Source: a virus | Direction: 5' to 3' (one strand) | DNA length: 64,000 nt | Virus record (IMG/VR): IMGVR_UViG_3300009551_000007 | Span: 17,753 to 81,752 of that record | Shown: positions 28,326 to 52,146 of the stretch, one piece after another | Numbering within the stretch: the first letter of the stretch is position 1 | Layout: each line of letters begins with the position of its first letter | The notes under the pieces: generated by a model | Told to the model about the DNA's origin: nothing | What the model saw: the letters and a program-made list of their open reading frames with translations, nothing else | Databases searched by the model: none | Translations under genes and position numbers: made by a program

Positions 28326-30752
28326 CTATTCGGCACTCTCGTCGGCCGCGATACCCGATTCCGTGAGCGATTCGGCTTCGGCAATCGCTTCGAGTTCGGC
28401 GAGCGCTTCCGGCGATGCCTCGGCGGTCGCGAACGGGTTCGTCGATTCGATGTCGGTCGGGATCTCGTTATTCACGACGACCGACCACAGTCGGCGAAGG
28501 AGTGAGGTTAGCCGCCATTTCGGCTTCGAGCGGACGCCCGGCGCGAGTATCGCCGTGAAGGTTTCGACGACACCGATCTTCCGCATGAATCTCAGTAGGT
28601 CGTTCGCCTTGTTCGTCGTCTCGTGAGTGAACATGGCGAGGTTGCGCGGCTCGATGCCTGTCTCACCGGAATCCATCATCGCCCTCGCCATGTCGAACGT
28701 GATCCCGCACGACGTGTCGATAGCCACCGACCGAACGAGATCCATAACCTCGGTATCGACCTCCCGCTTATTGAGGACGGCAGCGAGACATATCGCGAGT
28801 CGCCCCAGCTGTTCGGTGAGGCGGGGCGAGAACTCCCGCACAACGATCTCCTCTTGCTTTAGGCTGGGGCGGGCGCGGAGGAAGGCCACGAATAGGGCCA
28901 TATCCATGATGTCTTCCTCGCACTGCTCAGACATGATCACGGCTTCTTGTAGCCCCGTCGCGTTCTCGCGAAGGTACTCGACGTACCCACCGCATAGAGC
29001 CATAGCGCGGGTGAGCTGCGGGTCGTGTCGCGTCTCCGGCTTACCATTGGCTTCCATGCCCCGGTTCCGAATGAGCCGTTTCATGACCATGCGCTGGACC
29101 TCCCGCTCGAAGTCCTCATCCATCTTGTCCATAATCGAGCAGGTCAGGAACCGCTCGCCGAGTTCCGACGTGTCGAGCAGTCGCAGCGAACTGGTGCCGC
29201 ATAAAATCCAAGTCATATTGATTGAGCCGTAGTCGCGACCGCTACCGGTCTTGAAGTGGGTCCGTGCGGTGCGGTCGTAGATGTCCCGCGCCTCCGAGAG
29301 AATCTTGCCCAGATTGTCGGACTGGAGGAGCGTGTCGCCGTCCTTCGTCACCAGTGTCTTATTGAACAGTTTACTGATCAGGCCCAGGTCTTCGGACGGG
29401 TTCTCCTTGTCTTTCACGCCGGAAAAGAAGCCGGTCAGGTGGCTCATAGGCTTCGTGTACTTACTCGCCACGCAAACGGCCTCGCAGAACGTCGTCTTCC
29501 CTGTTGACGGCGGGCTAATGAACCGCATCCATAACTGTGAGCCGACGCCGGTCGTGGAGATGATCGTCGACAGCATACACGCCAAACCCTTGCGCATACC
29601 GGGGTTCCATTTCAGCGCCTTGCGGAACTCCTTTTCGAGCTGGGAGAAGGTGTTACAAGGAAGGCACTGGAGTTCGCTACCGCCCGTAGCCTTGGCGGTC
29701 GCGGTCCGGCCGGGCATCCAATCTTCCGGGAACGGGAGGACGTTGGCCATCAGTCCGCCGAGCGCCTTCACGCGGTCGGATATGTTATTCACACAGTTGA
29801 AGTAGTCACTCACGTCGAACCCGTCGGCGTAGTTCGGCGTCCAGCCGCCCTCACCCCAAGTCATCACGTTGATAGTGGAGGGCTTATTCTCCCCAGAGAG
29901 CAGCGTCTGCGTCGCCCGGTTCATGCCCGCCCAACCGTTCGGCGGCTGCATTACGCCCGACTCGTGCTGGACGGGATAGTCATTATCGTACATCATCCAA
30001 ACGTGCTTGTCGGCGCAGTAGTCGCGGTACATGTCTGGGAAGACACTCGCGCCCGGTGCCGCAACCACGTTAGTGAAGTTGAATAGCGACCCCATTTCGT
30101 TCGACGTGAGTGCGTAGTAGCTCTCCTGTTCGGGCCGGGCACGCTTCACCACTTCATAGAACATGATCCCGTCCCAGGGGCCTTCCAGAATCGCTAGGTT
30201 AGGCTTGCCCGGTTCGTACAGGGTCATCGGGGTATGAATGCCGTGGTTTAGGCCCGGCATCGAGTACCACCGCCACCGGTTCTTTTGCGGTTCATGACAG
30301 TAGCGGTAGAGGTTATTCATGCTCCCCTTCTCGTTGTACGAGGGGATGAGCCATTCGCCGGTAAGCACTGACCGAACCACGCCCCATTCGATTGCCGATT
30401 CGGGATACAAGAAGCCGCGTTCGGCAGCCAGCCCGTCGTAATCGGCACCGGCCTTCATGCACAGTTCGTGGTATTCCTTGATGAAGTTGTAGACGTTCCC
30501 TTTCCGCCCGCAACTCTTACAGTCCCATTGGCCGTCGGCTACCCCGACGTAGAACTTACCGACCTTTCCGCACAGCGGGCATTCGCCGACGGCTTGATCA
30601 CGGTCCTCGCGCGCCTCAATGTCGACGCCGTGAAACACGTAAGGCTTCAGCCATTTCGGCGCGTCGGCAATCGAACTCATGTCATCTCCTATGAATAAGA
30701 CCTGGCCCCGTGAAGGGCTAGGTGTGTAGTGTAACGGAAACTTCGGCATCAA
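28326..30752 (-). CDS. primase-helicase (Zn finger + TOPRIM + AAA+/MCM-like ATPase)
   Basis: CPLC...CKSC, ILEGPWDG...YDND and SPPSTGKT motifs. Confidence 0.75.
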   Translation of the reverse strand: MMPKFPLHYTPSPSRGQVLFIGDDMSSIADAPKWLKPYVFHGVDIEAREDRDQAVGECPLCGKVGKFYVGVADGQWDCKSCGRKGNVYNFIKEYHELCMKAGADYDGLAAERGFLYPESAIEWGVVRSVLTGEWLIPSYNEKGSMNNLYRYCHEPQKNRWRWYSMPGLNHGIHTPMTLYEPGKPNLAILEGPWDGIMFYEVVKRARPEQESYYALTSNEMGSLFNFTNVVAAPGASVFPDMYRDYCADKHVWMMYDNDYPVQHESGVMQPPNGWAGMNRATQTLLSGENKPSTINVMTWGEGGWTPNYADGFDVSDYFNCVNNISDRVKALGGLMANVLPFPEDWMPGRTATAKATGGSELQCLPCNTFSQLEKEFRKALKWNPGMRKGLACMLSTIISTTGVGSQLWMRFISPPSTGKTTFCEAVCVASKYTKPMSHLTGFFSGVKDKENPSEDLGLISKLFNKTLVTKDGDTLLQSDNLGKILSEARDIYDRTARTHFKTGSGRDYGSINMTWILCGTSSLRLLDTSELGERFLTCSIMDKMDEDFEREVQRMVMKRLIRNRGMEANGKPETRHDPQLTRAMALCGGYVEYLRENATGLQEAVIMSEQCEEDIMDMALFVAFLRARPSLKQEEIVVREFSPRLTEQLGRLAICLAAVLNKREVDTEVMDLVRSVAIDTSCGITFDMARAMMDSGETGIEPRNLAMFTHETTNKANDLLRFMRKIGVVETFTAILAPGVRSKPKWRLTSLLRRLWSVVVNNEIPTDIESTNPFATAEASPEALAELEAIAEAESLTESGIAADESAE

Positions 30753-47690: not shown

Positions 47691-49010
47691 TTAGGCATTT
47701 TGATGCGCCGTAATCAGTGCGAGGACTGCCGCGATGACGTCGGGCAGAATTTGTTGAGGCGTCTTCCCGGCTATCAGGTCCGAAATCACGACCGGCAGTA
47801 CCGTCGTGAAGATCAGCGCGAACAGTCCGGTCGTGATTGGCCCGCCTAACTTGGCCTTCACCGAGGGATGATCGAGGGCGTCGCGGATGATCGCTATTGC
47901 CTTGGCGAGCCGCCCGCCGCCGAGTTCGGCCTTGCCCGCCTGGTTCGTCACGGTGACTTGCTGAGGTGCGACCGTTAGCGCCGGAATGTCGACTGACCCG
48001 ATGCGCCCGCCGAACGGCCCATGCACCACCAAGCCCTTGATCGGTGTCGTCGTGCCGCCGGATGTAGTGCCGTGGAACGTGAGTGGCGCGGGCGGTGGTG
48101 GGGGACTTGGCGGAGACGGAGGGGAGGGTGGCGACGGCGGCGAAGGCGGGCTGGGAGGTGGAGGTGAGGGCGGCGACACGCCGGGAAACATTGCGACTAC
48201 CGCAGCCACCTTGGTCGCGTTCCCACCCATCGCGACCCATTTCGACGCCTGAACACTCACGTGCCGGCCCTTGGCGTCCAGACCCGTTGCCTTGTCGAAC
48301 TGCTGCCGAGAGAACGCCACGAACGTCTCCGGCTCGACGCTGGCGACGAACTTCGGGCCGACCGTGCACTTGTCCCCCCAAGTTATCAACTGGTAGTTAC
48401 CGCTCGCGTCCACGTCGGCGAGGGGCGTGTAGTGCCCGTTCTGGTCGTCCGGTGTCATGGCGCTGAGCCACTTCGTACCGGGTTCCCACGTGTCGAGGAA
48501 GGCGTCGGGCACGCTCCACGCCATCATTACGGCGAAGAACTGATCAATGGCGTACTGGGCGAGTGGAACATTGGTTACGTCGATGTCGAGGTGATCATCG
48601 ACGACGTAAGCCGGGTTACCCATGAGACCGCCGCCGCCGGTAGTCCACATGCCGCCCGTTCCGACAAGCATGTCCTCGTCGGTGCCGTTGTCGCCGCCCG
48701 AATACCTCTCGTACTGACTGTCGAGGGCGTTGACGTTCGGGGTGATCTGGGAACCCTTGCCCTGACGCCACGCCCAAATGACGTCAACGTGATCGCACAT
48801 GGCCGGTCCGCATATGCCGAGGCGGTCGTTGTCGTCCATATTGAATACGGGCGCGTGATCGCCGAGACTACTGACGGGCAGTGTCGTCACCGGGACAGCA
48901 CCCGCGACCGGGGCGAACGACGCAATGGCGGTCTTCCGCCGCATACGTTCACGGGGATGAAACACGACGTCGTGGCCGCGCTTCTTCAGTTTCTTTACAA
49001 CTCGTTCCAT
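47691..49010 (-). CDS. papain-like cysteine peptidase with Ser-Pro repeat linker and hydrophobic C-terminus
   Basis: NDRLGICGPA (Cys), NGHY (His), ITWG; SPP repeats; C-terminal TM-like helices. Confidence 0.55.
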   Translation of the reverse strand: MERVVKKLKKRGHDVVFHPRERMRRKTAIASFAPVAGAVPVTTLPVSSLGDHAPVFNMDDNDRLGICGPAMCDHVDVIWAWRQGKGSQITPNVNALDSQYERYSGGDNGTDEDMLVGTGGMWTTGGGGLMGNPAYVVDDHLDIDVTNVPLAQYAIDQFFAVMMAWSVPDAFLDTWEPGTKWLSAMTPDDQNGHYTPLADVDASGNYQLITWGDKCTVGPKFVASVEPETFVAFSRQQFDKATGLDAKGRHVSVQASKWVAMGGNATKVAAVVAMFPGVSPPSPPPPSPPSPPSPPSPPSPPSPPPPPAPLTFHGTTSGGTTTPIKGLVVHGPFGGRIGSVDIPALTVAPQQVTVTNQAGKAELGGGRLAKAIAIIRDALDHPSVKAKLGGPITTGLFALIFTTVLPVVISDLIAGKTPQQILPDVIAAVLALITAHQNA

Positions 49011-49043
49011 ACGGTCTCCTAATTGGCATGGGTAAGGCGCGAC

Positions 49044-49196
49044 GCCTGAGAGCCTTCAAGGGTCTTACTTCACGGGACGATTCCCGCATAGCTTGTCGGG
49101 TGCGGTCAAGCGGCCCTGCTAATCTGCCCGTTCCGTTGTTACTCAGGGGACACGGAACACGTCCCGGCGAGCGTCACCGTACTCGCCCTCTCAGGC
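49044..49196 (-). ncRNA. candidate multibranch structured RNA
   Basis: Closing stem GCCTGAGAG/CTCTCAGGC; internal stems GGCGAG/CTCGCC, GGGACG/CGTCCC and TTCCGT/ACGGAA. Confidence 0.45.
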
Positions 49197-49199
49197 TAG

Positions 49200-49273
49200 A
49201 GGCTCTGGTGGGGGGTCGAACCCACAACTCCGGGTTTAGAGTCCGACGTTTTACCGGTTAGAACTACAGAGCC
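49200..49273 (-). tRNA. tRNA with CUA anticodon (amber suppressor; Trp-like body)
   Basis: Acceptor GGCTCTG/CAGAGCC; D arm GTTC..GGTA.AAAC; loop CT-CTA-AA (anticodon 49237-49239); T arm GTGGG-TTCGA-CCCAC; one extra C in the T loop, an A-C mismatch in the anticodon stem, no encoded CCA. Confidence 0.75.
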
Positions 49274-49277
49274 GAAA

Positions 49278-49375
49278 GACCGACCGAGTAAAGGTTCGTC
49301 CCCTGCCGCCTCACGGTCACCACTACAAGCAGTGACCGTCTCGACGAAAGCGGCAAGGCAGTTACCCGGTCGGCC
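49278..49375 (-). ncRNA. long interrupted hairpin between the two tRNA-like genes
   Basis: GGCCGACCGGGTAA/TTACTCGGTCGGTC, TGCCGC/GCGGCA and ACGGTCAC/GTGACCGT. Confidence 0.5.
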
Positions 49376-49377
49376 AG

Positions 49378-49515
49378 TCCCCGCGGCCGGAATCGAACCG
49401 GCGATCTCTCCAGTGTTTACCCTATGGCGGCTAGTCGGAGGGTTGAGACCGAATTCCCCGCCACCATAGAGTCGTACACCTTAGAATGAGCGCTCTACCA
49501 CTGAGCCACGCAGGG
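49378..49515 (-). ncRNA. tRNA-like RNA (138 nt) with ~65-nt structured insertion in the anticodon arm
   Basis: Acceptor CCCTGCG/CGCGGGG; D arm GCTC-AGTGGTA-GAGC; T arm GCCGG-TTCGATT-CCGGC; insertion has a 13-bp helix ACTCTATGGTGGC/GCCGCCATAGGGT. Confidence 0.7.
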
Positions 49516-49661
49516 GTCCACCGTCGCGGCGTCCGGTCGACGAGCAAGCCAAAACTCCGACCTCGCGCCGCGACGGTAGTATGCGAGTCGTAGGGGAGGC
49601 GCGGGTTATCAGTCCGCCGGCCGTCCTCGTCACGGCCTCTCCCCTACGACGGGGAAGTGCT

Positions 49662-51029
49662 TCAGGCCATGTTCTCCAGCTGGTCGTACTTGACGCCCTT
49701 CCATGTCTTATTGCGGTCTTCGAGAGACAACACCCAGCACGTCCGCTCGTCGGGCTGGACGGCACTGATCTCGACCTCGATGGCCTTCGTCATCGGCTTC
49801 TTGGTCTTCGGGTCGGTGCCCTTGAATAAGAACACGTCACCGACCGCCGGGTGCCATTCGTCCCCCGCCGAGTCCGCCGGCGCGTCTTCGGCGGGTGCCG
49901 CGCCATCTTCCGGCGAAACGACCGACTTGATCAGTTCGGCGATCTCGCTCCAACTGCCGCAAGCCCCAATCTGATCGTCGGTGATACCGTGCTTGTTGGC
50001 GATCTCGGTTAGTCTCGCTGCGGCTGACTCTTGCTCCGAATTGGTGGCGTCGTCAGCTGCCGCTACCAACTCGTCAAAAGGGATTTCGTCGCCAACCTGG
50101 TACTCGTCGGACGGCACGGGTTCCGGTGCCGGTGCCGGCTTCGGTGCTGCCGGTTTCGGTCCCGGTTTCGGGGCTAGGGGCGCTTTCGCGGCCGGTGATG
50201 GAGCCGGTTTCGGTGCTCTCGGTTTCGGTCCCATGGGCGCTTTCGGTGCCGCAGCTGGAGGCTTCGCGGTTACCGGTGCGGGCTTGGCTTGAACCGGTGA
50301 GACTGGGGCCGGTTTGGGAGCGGTAACTGGTTTCGGTGCGGCGGGCTTCGGAGCAGTAGCGGCAGCAGCTGGTGCCTTAGCTGGGGCGGGCGGTTTCGTC
50401 GCTGCCGGCTTCGGGGGTGGCGGGGTTTGAGTCGAGACCTGAGCCGATTCCTCGACGCCGTCACCCGGATGCTCGAACCCTTCCGGCGGTTCGCAGACCT
50501 CCTCCCATTGATGGAACGTCCTCGGGTTGGGGAACTCCATCGTGGGTTGCCCCTGCCGCGTCGAGAACCTGATACACGGCTGCGATTGGACAATGGCTTG
50601 AATCGTGAGTTCGAGTTGCTCATCCAATCCTTCTTCGGTGAACTGCGACGTGTCGACGCCGAACATGCGGAACAAAGCGTACAACTTATTCAAGTTGTCC
50701 TGAAGGGTCTTCGAGGCTTTCGTCGGCGTGTCGTAGAGGTAGACGTTCTGGTTCGTCCGCCGGCCCTTCACCTTCCTCTGGTTCCCGGCGTCGTCGATCA
50801 CGAAGTCCGGGGTGATGGCGATGGCGGCGGCGTAGAAGAACGGCTTGCCTTTATTGTCGCCGTCCTTGTGCAAGTCGAACTTCATCTCTTTCAGGTACGC
50901 GACGCCCTCGACGTTGGGGGGCATTTCGCCGAACGACTGGGGTAGCCCCGTTTCGTTCTTCACTGTTTCGGAGGCTGCCGCGAGCGCCCCACTAATTTGA
51001 CTGAGAGCCGATTTCATCGTGCCTGCCAT
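49662..51029 (-). CDS. putative ssDNA-binding/replication accessory protein with long Pro/Ala/Lys linker
   Basis: Follows the AAA ATPase and exonuclease genes; beta-rich N-domain, PAKP-rich linker, acidic C-domain; AAGGAG RBS. Confidence 0.5.
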   Translation of the reverse strand: MAGTMKSALSQISGALAAASETVKNETGLPQSFGEMPPNVEGVAYLKEMKFDLHKDGDNKGKPFFYAAAIAITPDFVIDDAGNQRKVKGRRTNQNVYLYDTPTKASKTLQDNLNKLYALFRMFGVDTSQFTEEGLDEQLELTIQAIVQSQPCIRFSTRQGQPTMEFPNPRTFHQWEEVCEPPEGFEHPGDGVEESAQVSTQTPPPPKPAATKPPAPAKAPAAAATAPKPAAPKPVTAPKPAPVSPVQAKPAPVTAKPPAAAPKAPMGPKPRAPKPAPSPAAKAPLAPKPGPKPAAPKPAPAPEPVPSDEYQVGDEIPFDELVAAADDATNSEQESAAARLTEIANKHGITDDQIGACGSWSEIAELIKSVVSPEDGAAPAEDAPADSAGDEWHPAVGDVFLFKGTDPKTKKPMTKAIEVEISAVQPDERTCWVLSLEDRNKTWKGVKYDQLENMA

Positions 51030-51273
51030 TGCTTGCTCCTTGTGAGTTAGAAAGTGCCCCTCAGCCGATTTCGCGGCGTGTTTTACGGGCTGGCCGCCCG
51101 GACCGTTTGTCTGTCCGAAGTTACTCGCGGGCTATTACCCGCGAGACTTATCACCGGGAGTCGAACCCGATTCCCTTCACACCTGCCCTCGGTCAGCGAG
51201 TGGGAATCGAACCCACCTTTTCGCACACTGTCTTCCAGAAAGCGGAGTATACCCGAAACCTCTCGTAACGGTT

Positions 51274-52146
51274 TCATTCGTCCGGAAACTGAAACTCGCC
51301 GCGAATGACCGACACGATTTTGTCGTAGTCGGGGTCGATCAAAATGTCGGGGAGCGGGAACCCTTTCGGGGCGCGGAACTTGGTCTGGTACGTCGCGTGC
51401 GGGCCCATCCTCAAACAGTACTCGACACGCCCGGTCTTCTTGAGCATGGTTTGTTCCTTGCCGGCGATCTTCACCACGCTCGGTCGCATCTCACTGCGCT
51501 TGAACGTTTGCATGATGTAGTCGACGGCACCGTTCGTCCAGTTGGTGAGCGACGGCATTAGTGCCGCACCGACCGACGCCTCAATCACGTCCGAACCTTC
51601 GCCCTCGCCGCCGAACGTCTTCTGGTGGGCCACTATCACGACGTTTTGAGCGACGCTGAGGAGGGCGCGCAGGTTCTCGCGGAACTGGGTGGATATGGTA
51701 CCGTACTGCTGTTGACTGGCCGTCCCCCAGCCCTTCTGTTCGGGTATCTTAGTCAGCCCGCAAACCTCCTTTAGGATCATGTCTTGGTAGCCCGTGGCAT
51801 GGTCGAGCACCAGTGTCCGGAAACTCGACGCATGATTCTCGGCCAGCTCAACGAGTTCGCCCGAATCCTCCAACTTGAACTCTTTGATCCGGCCCTGGTT
51901 CTCCGCAGTGTAGACGCTCCTGAGTTCGCCCGGTTTCTTGCCCCCGCTCACCGACATCCAAAGGAGCGGCGCGGGGAACGTCGAGGCGATAGTAGTCTTG
52001 CCCGTTCCGCTCACTCCATACAGTAGCACCTTTATGCCGTCGTCGTCGGTGAACTGTATTGGTTGTATCCTATCGAGGAGCGACCGTTTCGGAGCGGGCG
52101 CGGCTCTCGCGCCGGGTCTTATCGGGTTGATTCTCGGCGGCGGCAT
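51274..52146 (-). CDS. AAA_24/Sak4-like recombination ATPase
   Basis: LLYGVSGTGKT, LVLDH and VVIVAHQ motifs. Confidence 0.75.
   Translation of the reverse strand: MPPPRINPIRPGARAAPAPKRSLLDRIQPIQFTDDDGIKVLLYGVSGTGKTTIASTFPAPLLWMSVSGGKKPGELRSVYTAENQGRIKEFKLEDSGELVELAENHASSFRTLVLDHATGYQDMILKEVCGLTKIPEQKGWGTASQQQYGTISTQFRENLRALLSVAQNVVIVAHQKTFGGEGEGSDVIEASVGAALMPSLTNWTNGAVDYIMQTFKRSEMRPSVVKIAGKEQTMLKKTGRVEYCLRMGPHATYQTKFRAPKGFPLPDILIDPDYDKIVSVIRGEFQFPDE

Follow-up and report, generated by a model that had tools for sequence, protein, structure and literature searches.

A tRNA-like phage gene with a structured rod in place of the anticodon loop: a candidate non-decoding tRNA mimic

The element described here is a tRNA-like gene of 138 nucleotides (nt; 49378..49515, minus strand) in a phage genome from a rhizosphere metagenome, IMG/VR record IMGVR_UViG_3300009551_000007, in which complete acceptor, D and T arms carry a long irregular rod in the position of the lower anticodon stem and loop. 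The analysis covered a stretch of 64,000 nt (the window, to whose numbering all coordinates refer unless another locus is named), corresponding to bases 17753-81752 of a virus record of 81,752 base pairs (bp) that has direct terminal repeats and a completeness rating of 100%. Judged from sequence and predicted structure, the element is best read as a non-decoding tRNA mimic, i.e., a functional RNA module on a tRNA scaffold, with a probability of roughly 0.45. This reading is favored because a complete tRNA core is combined with a rod in the place of the anticodon loop and with an apical module conserved over a large distance; because no single excision gives a standard anticodon arm; and because the insert is a stable rod within a strongly structured non-coding block of 651 nt that the phage has kept. 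It is favored further because related phages carry, at the same locus, loops of 6 and 12 nt and missing arms which splicing cannot explain, and because identical acceptor stems (in the loci L062, L007, and L055) bear three different lower halves.

The tRNA core

The element reads 5' to 3' from 49515 to 49378. Its acceptor stem is built from CCCUGCG, beginning with C1 (49509..49515), and CGCGGGG with a discriminator A (49378..49385; ARAGORN -i, Rfam alignment), such that all seven bases of the 5' strand (7/7) pair with 49379-49385, one of the pairs being U.G; CCA is not encoded, and ACUG follows the stem. U8 and G9 lead from the acceptor stem to the D arm, GCUC with loop AGUGGUA and GAGC (49492..49506), which contains G18G19 and is followed by G26. 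On the 3' side, GAG (positions 41-43) and a 5-nt variable region, AGAUC (together 49403..49410 in the Rfam alignment), precede the T arm, GCCGG with loop UUCGAUU and CCGGC (49386..49402); both the D and the T arm were located by ARAGORN -i, by Rfam, and by an arm finder. The positions on which the elbow and core of a tRNA depend, as read from the sequence, are all present (U8-A14, G15-C48, G18G19, G53-C61, A58). An earlier reading made from the sequence alone, without database searches (the sequence-only reading), had described perfect acceptor, D and T arms, and this description was confirmed by ARAGORN with introns allowed (-i), by the Rfam alignment, and by the separate arm finder.

In a local scan of 771 nt, the element matched the Rfam tRNA model RF00005 with 45.7 bits (E 1.8e-8, cut-off 29) over model positions 1-71. 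The alignment places 77 nt (49411..49487) where the model has 11 positions (30-40), a net insert of ~66 nt. Neither ARAGORN in its default mode nor the Rfam scan of the whole window at the gathering threshold reported the element, and both gave only a neighboring tRNA(CUA). With introns allowed, ARAGORN returned 'tRNA-Leu(UAA), 63-nt intron at 33/34', a call that depends on a U-C mismatch, on a variable loop of 7 nt, and on two bases separating the D stem from the anticodon stem. Examined as a decoding tRNA, the element has the acceptor stem with its discriminator, the G18G19 D arm, and the UUCRANY T loop; it has no anticodon arm with a stem of 5 bp and with U33 and a position-37 purine in a loop of 7 nt. 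The sequence-only reading had named a match to a known Rfam family as its refutation; such a match exists trivially, to tRNA itself and by way of the arms, and no other family was convincing.

The rod and its apical module

Only CUC (positions 27-29, 49488..49490) represents the anticodon stem in canonical register, where the Rfam alignment pairs it with GAG (49408-49410); the minimum-energy fold forms UCU/AGA (3 bp) at the base of the insert instead. Above it follow, in the same fold, a 5-bp helix of GGUGU (49476..49480) and ACACU (49412..49416), a 13-bp helix between 49460..49472 and 49419..49431 (ACUCUAUGGUGGC/GCCGCCAUAGGGU), and an apical module (49432..49459) containing a 4-bp UCGG/CCGA hairpin. 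The 5-bp helix is flanked by internal loops, AA/GG (2x2) and ACG/AA (3x2), so that the lower half as a whole is an irregular rod of ~25 bp capped by the apical module. All three helices proposed in the sequence-only reading (GGTGT/ACACT, the 13-bp helix, TCGG/CCGA) recur in the minimum-energy fold, the UCU/AGA pairing at the base being the only addition. The fold energy of the element is -62.3 kcal/mol (z = -3.31), and none of 200 shuffles was as stable. Within the apical module lie three 7-nt motifs, GGGAAUU (49452-49458), GGUCUCA (49444-49450), and UCCGACU (49433-49439), all of which are shared with a related phage locus, L007.

The proteins of L007 are 36-47% identical to those of the window phage, and its slot between the gene for a 455-amino-acid (aa) protein and that for DNA polymerase holds two tRNA-like genes. 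The first of them, L007:7121-7260, scores 41.9 bits with the Rfam tRNA model, 76 nt standing in place of 9 positions. Its body is unlike that of the window element (acceptor GGUCCUG/CAGGACC), and its insert is of similar size and carries GGGAAUU, GGUCUCA, and UCCGACU in the same order; only 35 of 200,000 shuffles of the L007 insert do as well as these three collinear shared 7-mers. Between the motifs L007 has two extra, mutually pairing blocks (UCGGCGU/ACGCCGA), and the stems that flank the motifs differ, so the motifs look fixed and the helices between them appear to vary. An nhmmer search with the window insert against 880 kb of fetched loci returned no relatives and did not link the two inserts, the likeness being confined to the motifs. 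Besides the window element, the L007 contig alone showed the three-motif pattern in a tRNA context; chance matches to the trio lay in coding sequence of a viral contig (467 kb) and in a methylase gene, and of the 34 matches in prokaryote genomes (596 Gb), not one was accompanied by an ARAGORN call or followed by a T arm within 80 nt.

The second gene of this slot, L007:6944-7045, has a good 5-bp anticodon stem that closes a 34-nt, hairpin-containing loop. That hairpin contains GUCGAAAG and GACGAAUG, both of which fit the motif GNCGAAN0-1G as given for the strand of YrlA that binds Ro60 in the passages on Y RNAs in PMC4201824. A further fragment, L007:7300-7345, has 12 consecutive bases (CGUGGCUCAGUG) in common with the junction of acceptor and D arm in the window element; lacking a matching 3' half, it looks like the remnant of a tRNA. 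A nested tRNA, considered by comparing the insert with the D-arm region of L007:7121-7260, was rejected because the signal was too weak (z = 3.2, 3/200 shuffles as good). An antisense guide was likewise discarded, no stretch of the insert longer than 11 nt being matched elsewhere in the phage genome.

The locus in related phages

No near-identical sequence was found in the phage collection searched at the DNA level or in viral contigs searched by exact 31-mers and 22-mers, and two DNA runs yielded the source contig only, plus a 320-nt contig matching the T arm. Relatives were collected through proteins. The 455-aa protein, aligned with three distant homologs, retrieved seven viral and four metagenome loci, across which the order of exonuclease, Sak4-like gene, 455-aa gene, variable slot, and family A DNA polymerase (PolA) is kept, with protein identities from ~29% to 50%; no tRNA-type match was seen in any of the four metagenome loci. 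A PolA alignment added 48 viral loci, of which ~18 (PolA 30-48% identical) were counted as a clade; L070-L100 except L073 were not so counted, being PolA relatives at ≤ 31% identity. Among cultured or fecal phage records, PolA matches were obtained in six, at only 22-25% identity. Slot elements were located by ARAGORN -i, by a T-arm pattern, and by the arm finder, whose rows for position 28357 on the plus strand of the window, L060, L066 (minus), L075, L078, L092, and three composite L087 rows were dropped as chance or out of scope. Neither the viral contigs, by exact 31-mer and 22-mer, nor the clade slots contained an ortholog of the element's tRNA body, uninterrupted or otherwise, and in blastn of the array around the element against the slots of relatives the T arm was the only match.

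Rfam tRNA matches (E ≤ 1) occur in 9 of 21 related records, 8 of them over the cut-off, and 3 of 13 places reach 60 bits. Canonical tRNA-Met(CAU) genes are present in L002 and L059, and in L066 according to ARAGORN only. L067:3340-3411, in a phage whose PolA is 43% identical to that of the window phage, is a canonical tRNA(CUA) with loop CUCUAAA (62.2 bits); its acceptor stem is related to that of the tRNA(CUA) of the window (GGCUCUG/CAGAGCC against GGCUCCG/CGGAGCC, discriminator U). These sequences suggest that phages with the standard code conserve an amber suppressor tRNA.

The remaining genes depart from the canonical form, with lower halves that range from loops of 6, 12, and 19 nt to 100-nt inserts or no lower half at all. 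L062:3252-3324 has a 6-nt loop and L057:344-419 a purine-rich loop of 12 nt, L062:833-1008 and L058:3007-3175 are extended to 176 and 169 nt, respectively, and L054 combines acceptor and T arm with a single hairpin; further non-standard tRNA-like genes are found in L063 and, twice, in L067. The acceptor GGUCCUG/CAGGACC is identical in L062, L007, and L055, where it is joined to three unrelated lower halves, and the GGUCCUG body in L062 is without the insert present in L007. L055:4181-4250 and L058:2715-2788 form a second, small conserved family of orthologous tRNA-like RNAs of ~70-74 nt with acceptor and T arm and without D or anticodon arm, which have GUGUGGUARC, one hairpin, and UGAUAGGGCA in common. 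As predicted from their sequences, tRNA-shaped genes unable to decode are common at this locus.

Genomic setting

The phage has a G+C content of 60%, and its gene set is that of a tailed bacteriophage. The element lies in a replication module encoded on one strand, comprising a RuvC-like resolvase, uracil-DNA glycosylase, PD-(D/E)XK exonuclease, Sak4-like ATPase, the 455-aa protein, the RNA array, a 439-aa protein, and the family A DNA polymerase. Pfam analysis of 55 further window proteins added portal, MuF, ribonucleotide reductase, 5-hmdU DNA kinase, amino acid:DNA transferase, methylases, and ADP-ribosyltransferase domains. An archaeal virus with an archaeal intron, first suggested by C1-G72 together with A73 and by the high G+C content, was rejected in view of this phage-like gene set with its bacterial-type functions (PolA, Sak4-like, MuF, portal, and others), and the archaeal intron also in view of the missing bulge-helix-bulge motif. 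Under the standard genetic code, open reading frames of at least 100 codons cover 97% of the genome and the long ones end with all three stops; stop-codon recoding, of which there is no sign, was rejected on these grounds.

The non-coding array (49011..49661, minus strand, 651 nt) is situated between the 455-aa and 439-aa genes and is strongly folded (z = -4.76, 0/20 shuffles as stable). It comprises, in order, two long hairpins, the tRNA-like gene, another long hairpin, the tRNA(CUA), and a tail. The two tRNA-type genes are the only ones in the phage. The tRNA(CUA) (49200..49273, minus strand; ARAGORN and Rfam, 48.3 bits) has the loop CUCUAAA, an A31.C39 mismatch, and an 8-nt T loop. The spacers 49274-49377 and 49516-49661 (minus strand) fold into long near-perfect hairpins around both genes, among them a 12-bp stem within which two hairpins lie, and a rod of ~100 nt; similar long hairpins separate the tRNA-type genes of L067. 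No promoter-like or terminator-like site was found on the minus strand of 49011-49661, the only minus-strand match of the scan being at 51314..51297.

Directly downstream of the array, the 439-aa protein (47691-49010, minus strand) is without a Pfam or PHROG match. An Atlas structure search found papain-family cysteine proteases to be most alike (template modeling (TM) score 0.44-0.51), and the protein was not found in the relatives examined; on the grounds of this protease resemblance and lack of conservation, it was rejected as an RNA enzyme. Upstream, the 455-aa protein (49662-51029, minus strand) has a conserved N-terminal domain of ~180 aa and a long Ala/Pro-rich linker, and the consensus of its family carries an internal GDEIPFD-like motif, which we take to resemble the tail of single-strand DNA-binding proteins. 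The position of its gene between the Sak4-like gene and PolA would fit such a protein. Still further upstream, two lone T-arm hairpins are present (51160-51235, minus strand), GUGGG UUCGAUU CCCAC and UCGGG UUCGACU CCCGG. GCGA/UCGC, a stem of 4 bp resembling an acceptor, encloses the first, and the core of the second (CGGG UUCGACU CCCGG) recurs in the T arm of L007:7121-7260.

Interpretation

As a non-decoding mimic, the RNA would probably be transcribed within a long minus-strand transcript of the replication module. Its intact arms and elbow would make it a substrate for host RNase P, for a 3'-end nuclease, and for the CCA-adding enzyme, which would release and mature it as they do a tRNA. 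It could not read codons, since the rod replaces the lower anticodon stem and loop. Its likeliest job would be to occupy a host factor that recognizes the shape of a tRNA, for example a tRNA-cutting defence nuclease, which would meet no anticodon loop to cut, and the apical module would serve as a second binding surface; processing, stability, and partner of the mimic are what we infer here. Of the two possibilities raised in the sequence-only reading, a tRNA mimic (a putative decoy for anticodon nucleases, synthetases, or the ribosome) or an unusual intron-containing tRNA, the former fits best, given the intact top half and core, the failure of any excision to restore the arm, and clade genes that introns do not account for. 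The latter is weakened by the lack of a bulge-helix-bulge, by the phage genome, and by splicing and ligation enzymes that were not found in that genome, and it is kept alive by a 67-nt hairpin set flush against an anticodon-like heptamer and by locus L053.

A more far-reaching proposal, possible and yet rather doubtful in its full form, is that the soil-phage clade keeps fast-diversifying tRNA mimics at one locus, with 6- and 12-nt loops, rods of 35-100 nt, and deletions as the footprint of an arms race, and that the element is an uncuttable decoy with an apical binding module. On such terms the mimics would keep the acceptor/T-arm half, often the whole core, and the host factors would attack or sense the anticodon loop.

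Some points weigh against a mimic. Were a second suppressor interrupted, a heptamer such as UUCUAAG beside a tRNA(CUA) gene is what one would expect to see, and L053 has the appearance of a true interrupted tRNA-Met. Because the clade elements were located by way of T arms and paired acceptor strands, the conserved top half is in part an effect of ascertainment. Finally, the insert family has two members only, too few for covariation to be seen.

The first of these points leads to the strongest rival, an interrupted decoding tRNA, which we consider unlikely though far from negligible. It holds that a second CUA amber suppressor carries a 67-nt hairpin inserted after base 38 of the loop and before base 39 of the stem, to be removed by cutting and rejoining after transcription, e.g., by a host double-strand RNA nuclease and a host ligase; the product would have a 4-bp anticodon stem (CUCA / U-GAG) with one bulged G and the loop UUCUAAG. 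The heptamer (49480..49486, minus strand; U, U, CUA, A, G, as read from sequence and fold) offers U33, CUA, and a purine at position 37 beside a tRNA with the loop CUCUAAA, for which chance is put at ~1-2% over a few registers as a rough estimate, and a self-contained 67-nt hairpin (GUGU...ACAC) begins right at its end. The sequence-only reading had pointed to a possible CUA in imperfect register, and UUCUAAG is indeed off by one base, positions 34-36 being UAA and position 33 a C in canonical numbering. In the minimum-energy fold it is mostly paired, UCU with AGA, and its final G opens GGUGU. Relatives lend the rival some weight: the tRNA-Met of L053 holds, on the 5' side of its loop, 12-13 additional bases that pair with the anticodon, and is canonical once they are removed, and removal of 67 nt from L007:7121-7260 would give the nearly canonical stem CCUAG, loop CUGUCAU, and stem UUACG. 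Unexplained tRNA introns are, moreover, described for Lak megaphages in passages of PMC6784885.

Against this, the window element would be left with a stem of only 3-4 pairs and a register off by one. When the first k bases after the D arm were joined to the last 17-k before the variable region, with linkers of 0-2 nt and variable loops of 3-7 nt, no single excision restored a 5-bp stem and a 7-nt loop with U33, the best score being 2.5 on a scale of 5 stem pairs. The bulge-helix-bulge motif (two 3-nt bulges, 4-bp helix) is missing from both the minimum-energy and the centroid fold. A six-frame search of the whole phage genome gave no match to RtcB (PF01139), Rnl2-type RNA_ligase (PF09414), or tRNA-intron endonuclease (PF01974); the search for T4 Rnl1 (PF09511) was uninformative, its positive control giving no match. 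The adjacent 439-aa protein resembles a papain-type protease and not an RNA enzyme, an uninterrupted ortholog was not found in the viral contigs or clade slots, and with the standard code in use no need is seen for a second suppressor.

Self-splicing and trans-translation could be set aside, in agreement with the sequence-only reading, which had judged the insert too short for a group I intron or tmRNA and had noted the retained D stem. The 66-77 nt of the insert compare with a group I core of ~200 nt or more, and in the Rfam scan of 771 nt at E ≤ 10 no convincing match to intron, ribozyme, riboswitch, T-box, tmRNA, or Y RNA families was obtained (best non-tRNA E 0.17), no intron family appearing at all. 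For tmRNA, ARAGORN -m gave no call, pair 3-70 is C-G and not G3.U70, and the D stem is present. A tag-peptide frame was considered because the insert contains 16 codons from ATG to TAA, and it was rejected, as the frame in L007 has only 6 codons and a different register relative to the shared motif.

Decay of a tRNA gene, whose anticodon arm would have been destroyed by insertion or internal rearrangement, whose remainder would not yet have eroded, and which would serve no function, is the less probable of the two explanations without a mimic considered so far. It could draw on the tRNA debris at the locus (the lone T-arm hairpins at 51216 and 51170, and the L007 fragment with its 12 shared bases), on the mostly low scores of the clade with the tRNA model (3 of 13 places at 60 bits), and on the fast change of slot content among relatives. 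Neutral decay, however, should also strike the arms and tertiary positions outside the insert, which are all intact; the motifs of the insert are shared with a relative at 36-47% protein identity, and a compact phage retains 651 nt of strongly folded non-coding sequence.

A mere processing signal, the top half serving as a site for RNase P or a 3'-nuclease that cuts the replication-module transcript between the 455-aa and downstream genes as the lower half drifts, is improbable: although the element is intergenic, on the strand of both neighbors, and free of promoter- or terminator-like sites nearby (49011-49661, same strand), and although minihelix-like T-arm hairpins also precede the 455-aa gene and clade members differ freely in their lower halves, such a signal would leave unexplained the intact D arm and core, the long stable rod, and the conservation of insert motifs across a large distance.

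Phage tRNA genes are usually read as helpers in codon usage or as replacements for tRNAs cut by defence systems. The present case concerns a complete tRNA body that would be unable to decode, beside a conserved amber-suppressor tRNA, at a locus where most tRNA-type genes of the clade are non-standard. Provided that such RNAs are produced and stable, they would constitute a class of phage-encoded tRNA mimics distinct from tmRNA and YrlA, and an RNA of 138 nt in a clonable two-gene array would provide a tractable route to the partner. If instead the insert is excised, the element would join the cases in which bacteria or their phages splice a tRNA by an unexplained route, and it could act as a switch for amber suppression.

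Comparison with known systems

No description of a phage tRNA-like gene with such a rod was found in a literature search confined to open-access main text. One of the two closest published cases is that of Lak megaphages, for which passages of Devoto et al. (2019, PMC6784885) describe 'enigmatic' introns in tRNA genes. As far as these passages go, both systems have a phage tRNA gene whose anticodon region is split by an insert well short of group I intron size, with no known splicing mechanism, and the insert may in both be confined to some relatives. The Lak genes differ in that eukaryote settings allowed their tRNA type and anticodon to be assigned, whereas no excision gives the window element a standard anticodon arm; its insert is also longer (66-77 nt) and holds a conserved apical module. 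Judged by whether a canonical tRNA is left after removal of the insert, as for the Lak genes, L053 would belong with them and L007:7121-7260 nearly so, and the window element would not.

YrlA and other bacterial Y RNAs, the other close case, are tRNA mimics bound by Ro60 (Rsr), as set out in passages of Chen et al. (2014, PMC4201824). With YrlA, as it is portrayed there, the element shares a predicted non-decoding character, tRNA-like D, T, and acceptor parts, and a long helix in the place of the anticodon arm. The topology is permuted: YrlA ends in the Ro-binding helix and its acceptor-like stem is closed by a loop, whereas the window element ends in the acceptor stem and its rod is closed. 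A six-frame search of the entire genome found no Ro60/TROVE gene, the 771-nt Rfam scan at E ≤ 10 gave no Y RNA family, and the GNCGAAN0-1G motif, as given in those passages, is not in the window element. A permuted Y RNA was rejected, since gene and motif are both missing and the resemblance is one of design only.

With the intron-containing pre-tRNAs of archaea and eukaryotes, the element has in common an insert in the anticodon arm that is of similar size and pairs with bases of the anticodon loop. It departs from bulge-helix-bulge pre-tRNAs in the 2x2 and 3x2 internal loops around its 5-bp helix, in its phage gene set, and in that no splicing endonuclease was found in the phage genome. The tRNA cluster of phage T4 also encodes small stable RNAs, and in engineered 'tRNA scaffolds' a foreign RNA replaces the anticodon loop. 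By their descriptions, both would resemble the element in being non-decoding RNAs that ride on the processing and stability of tRNA.

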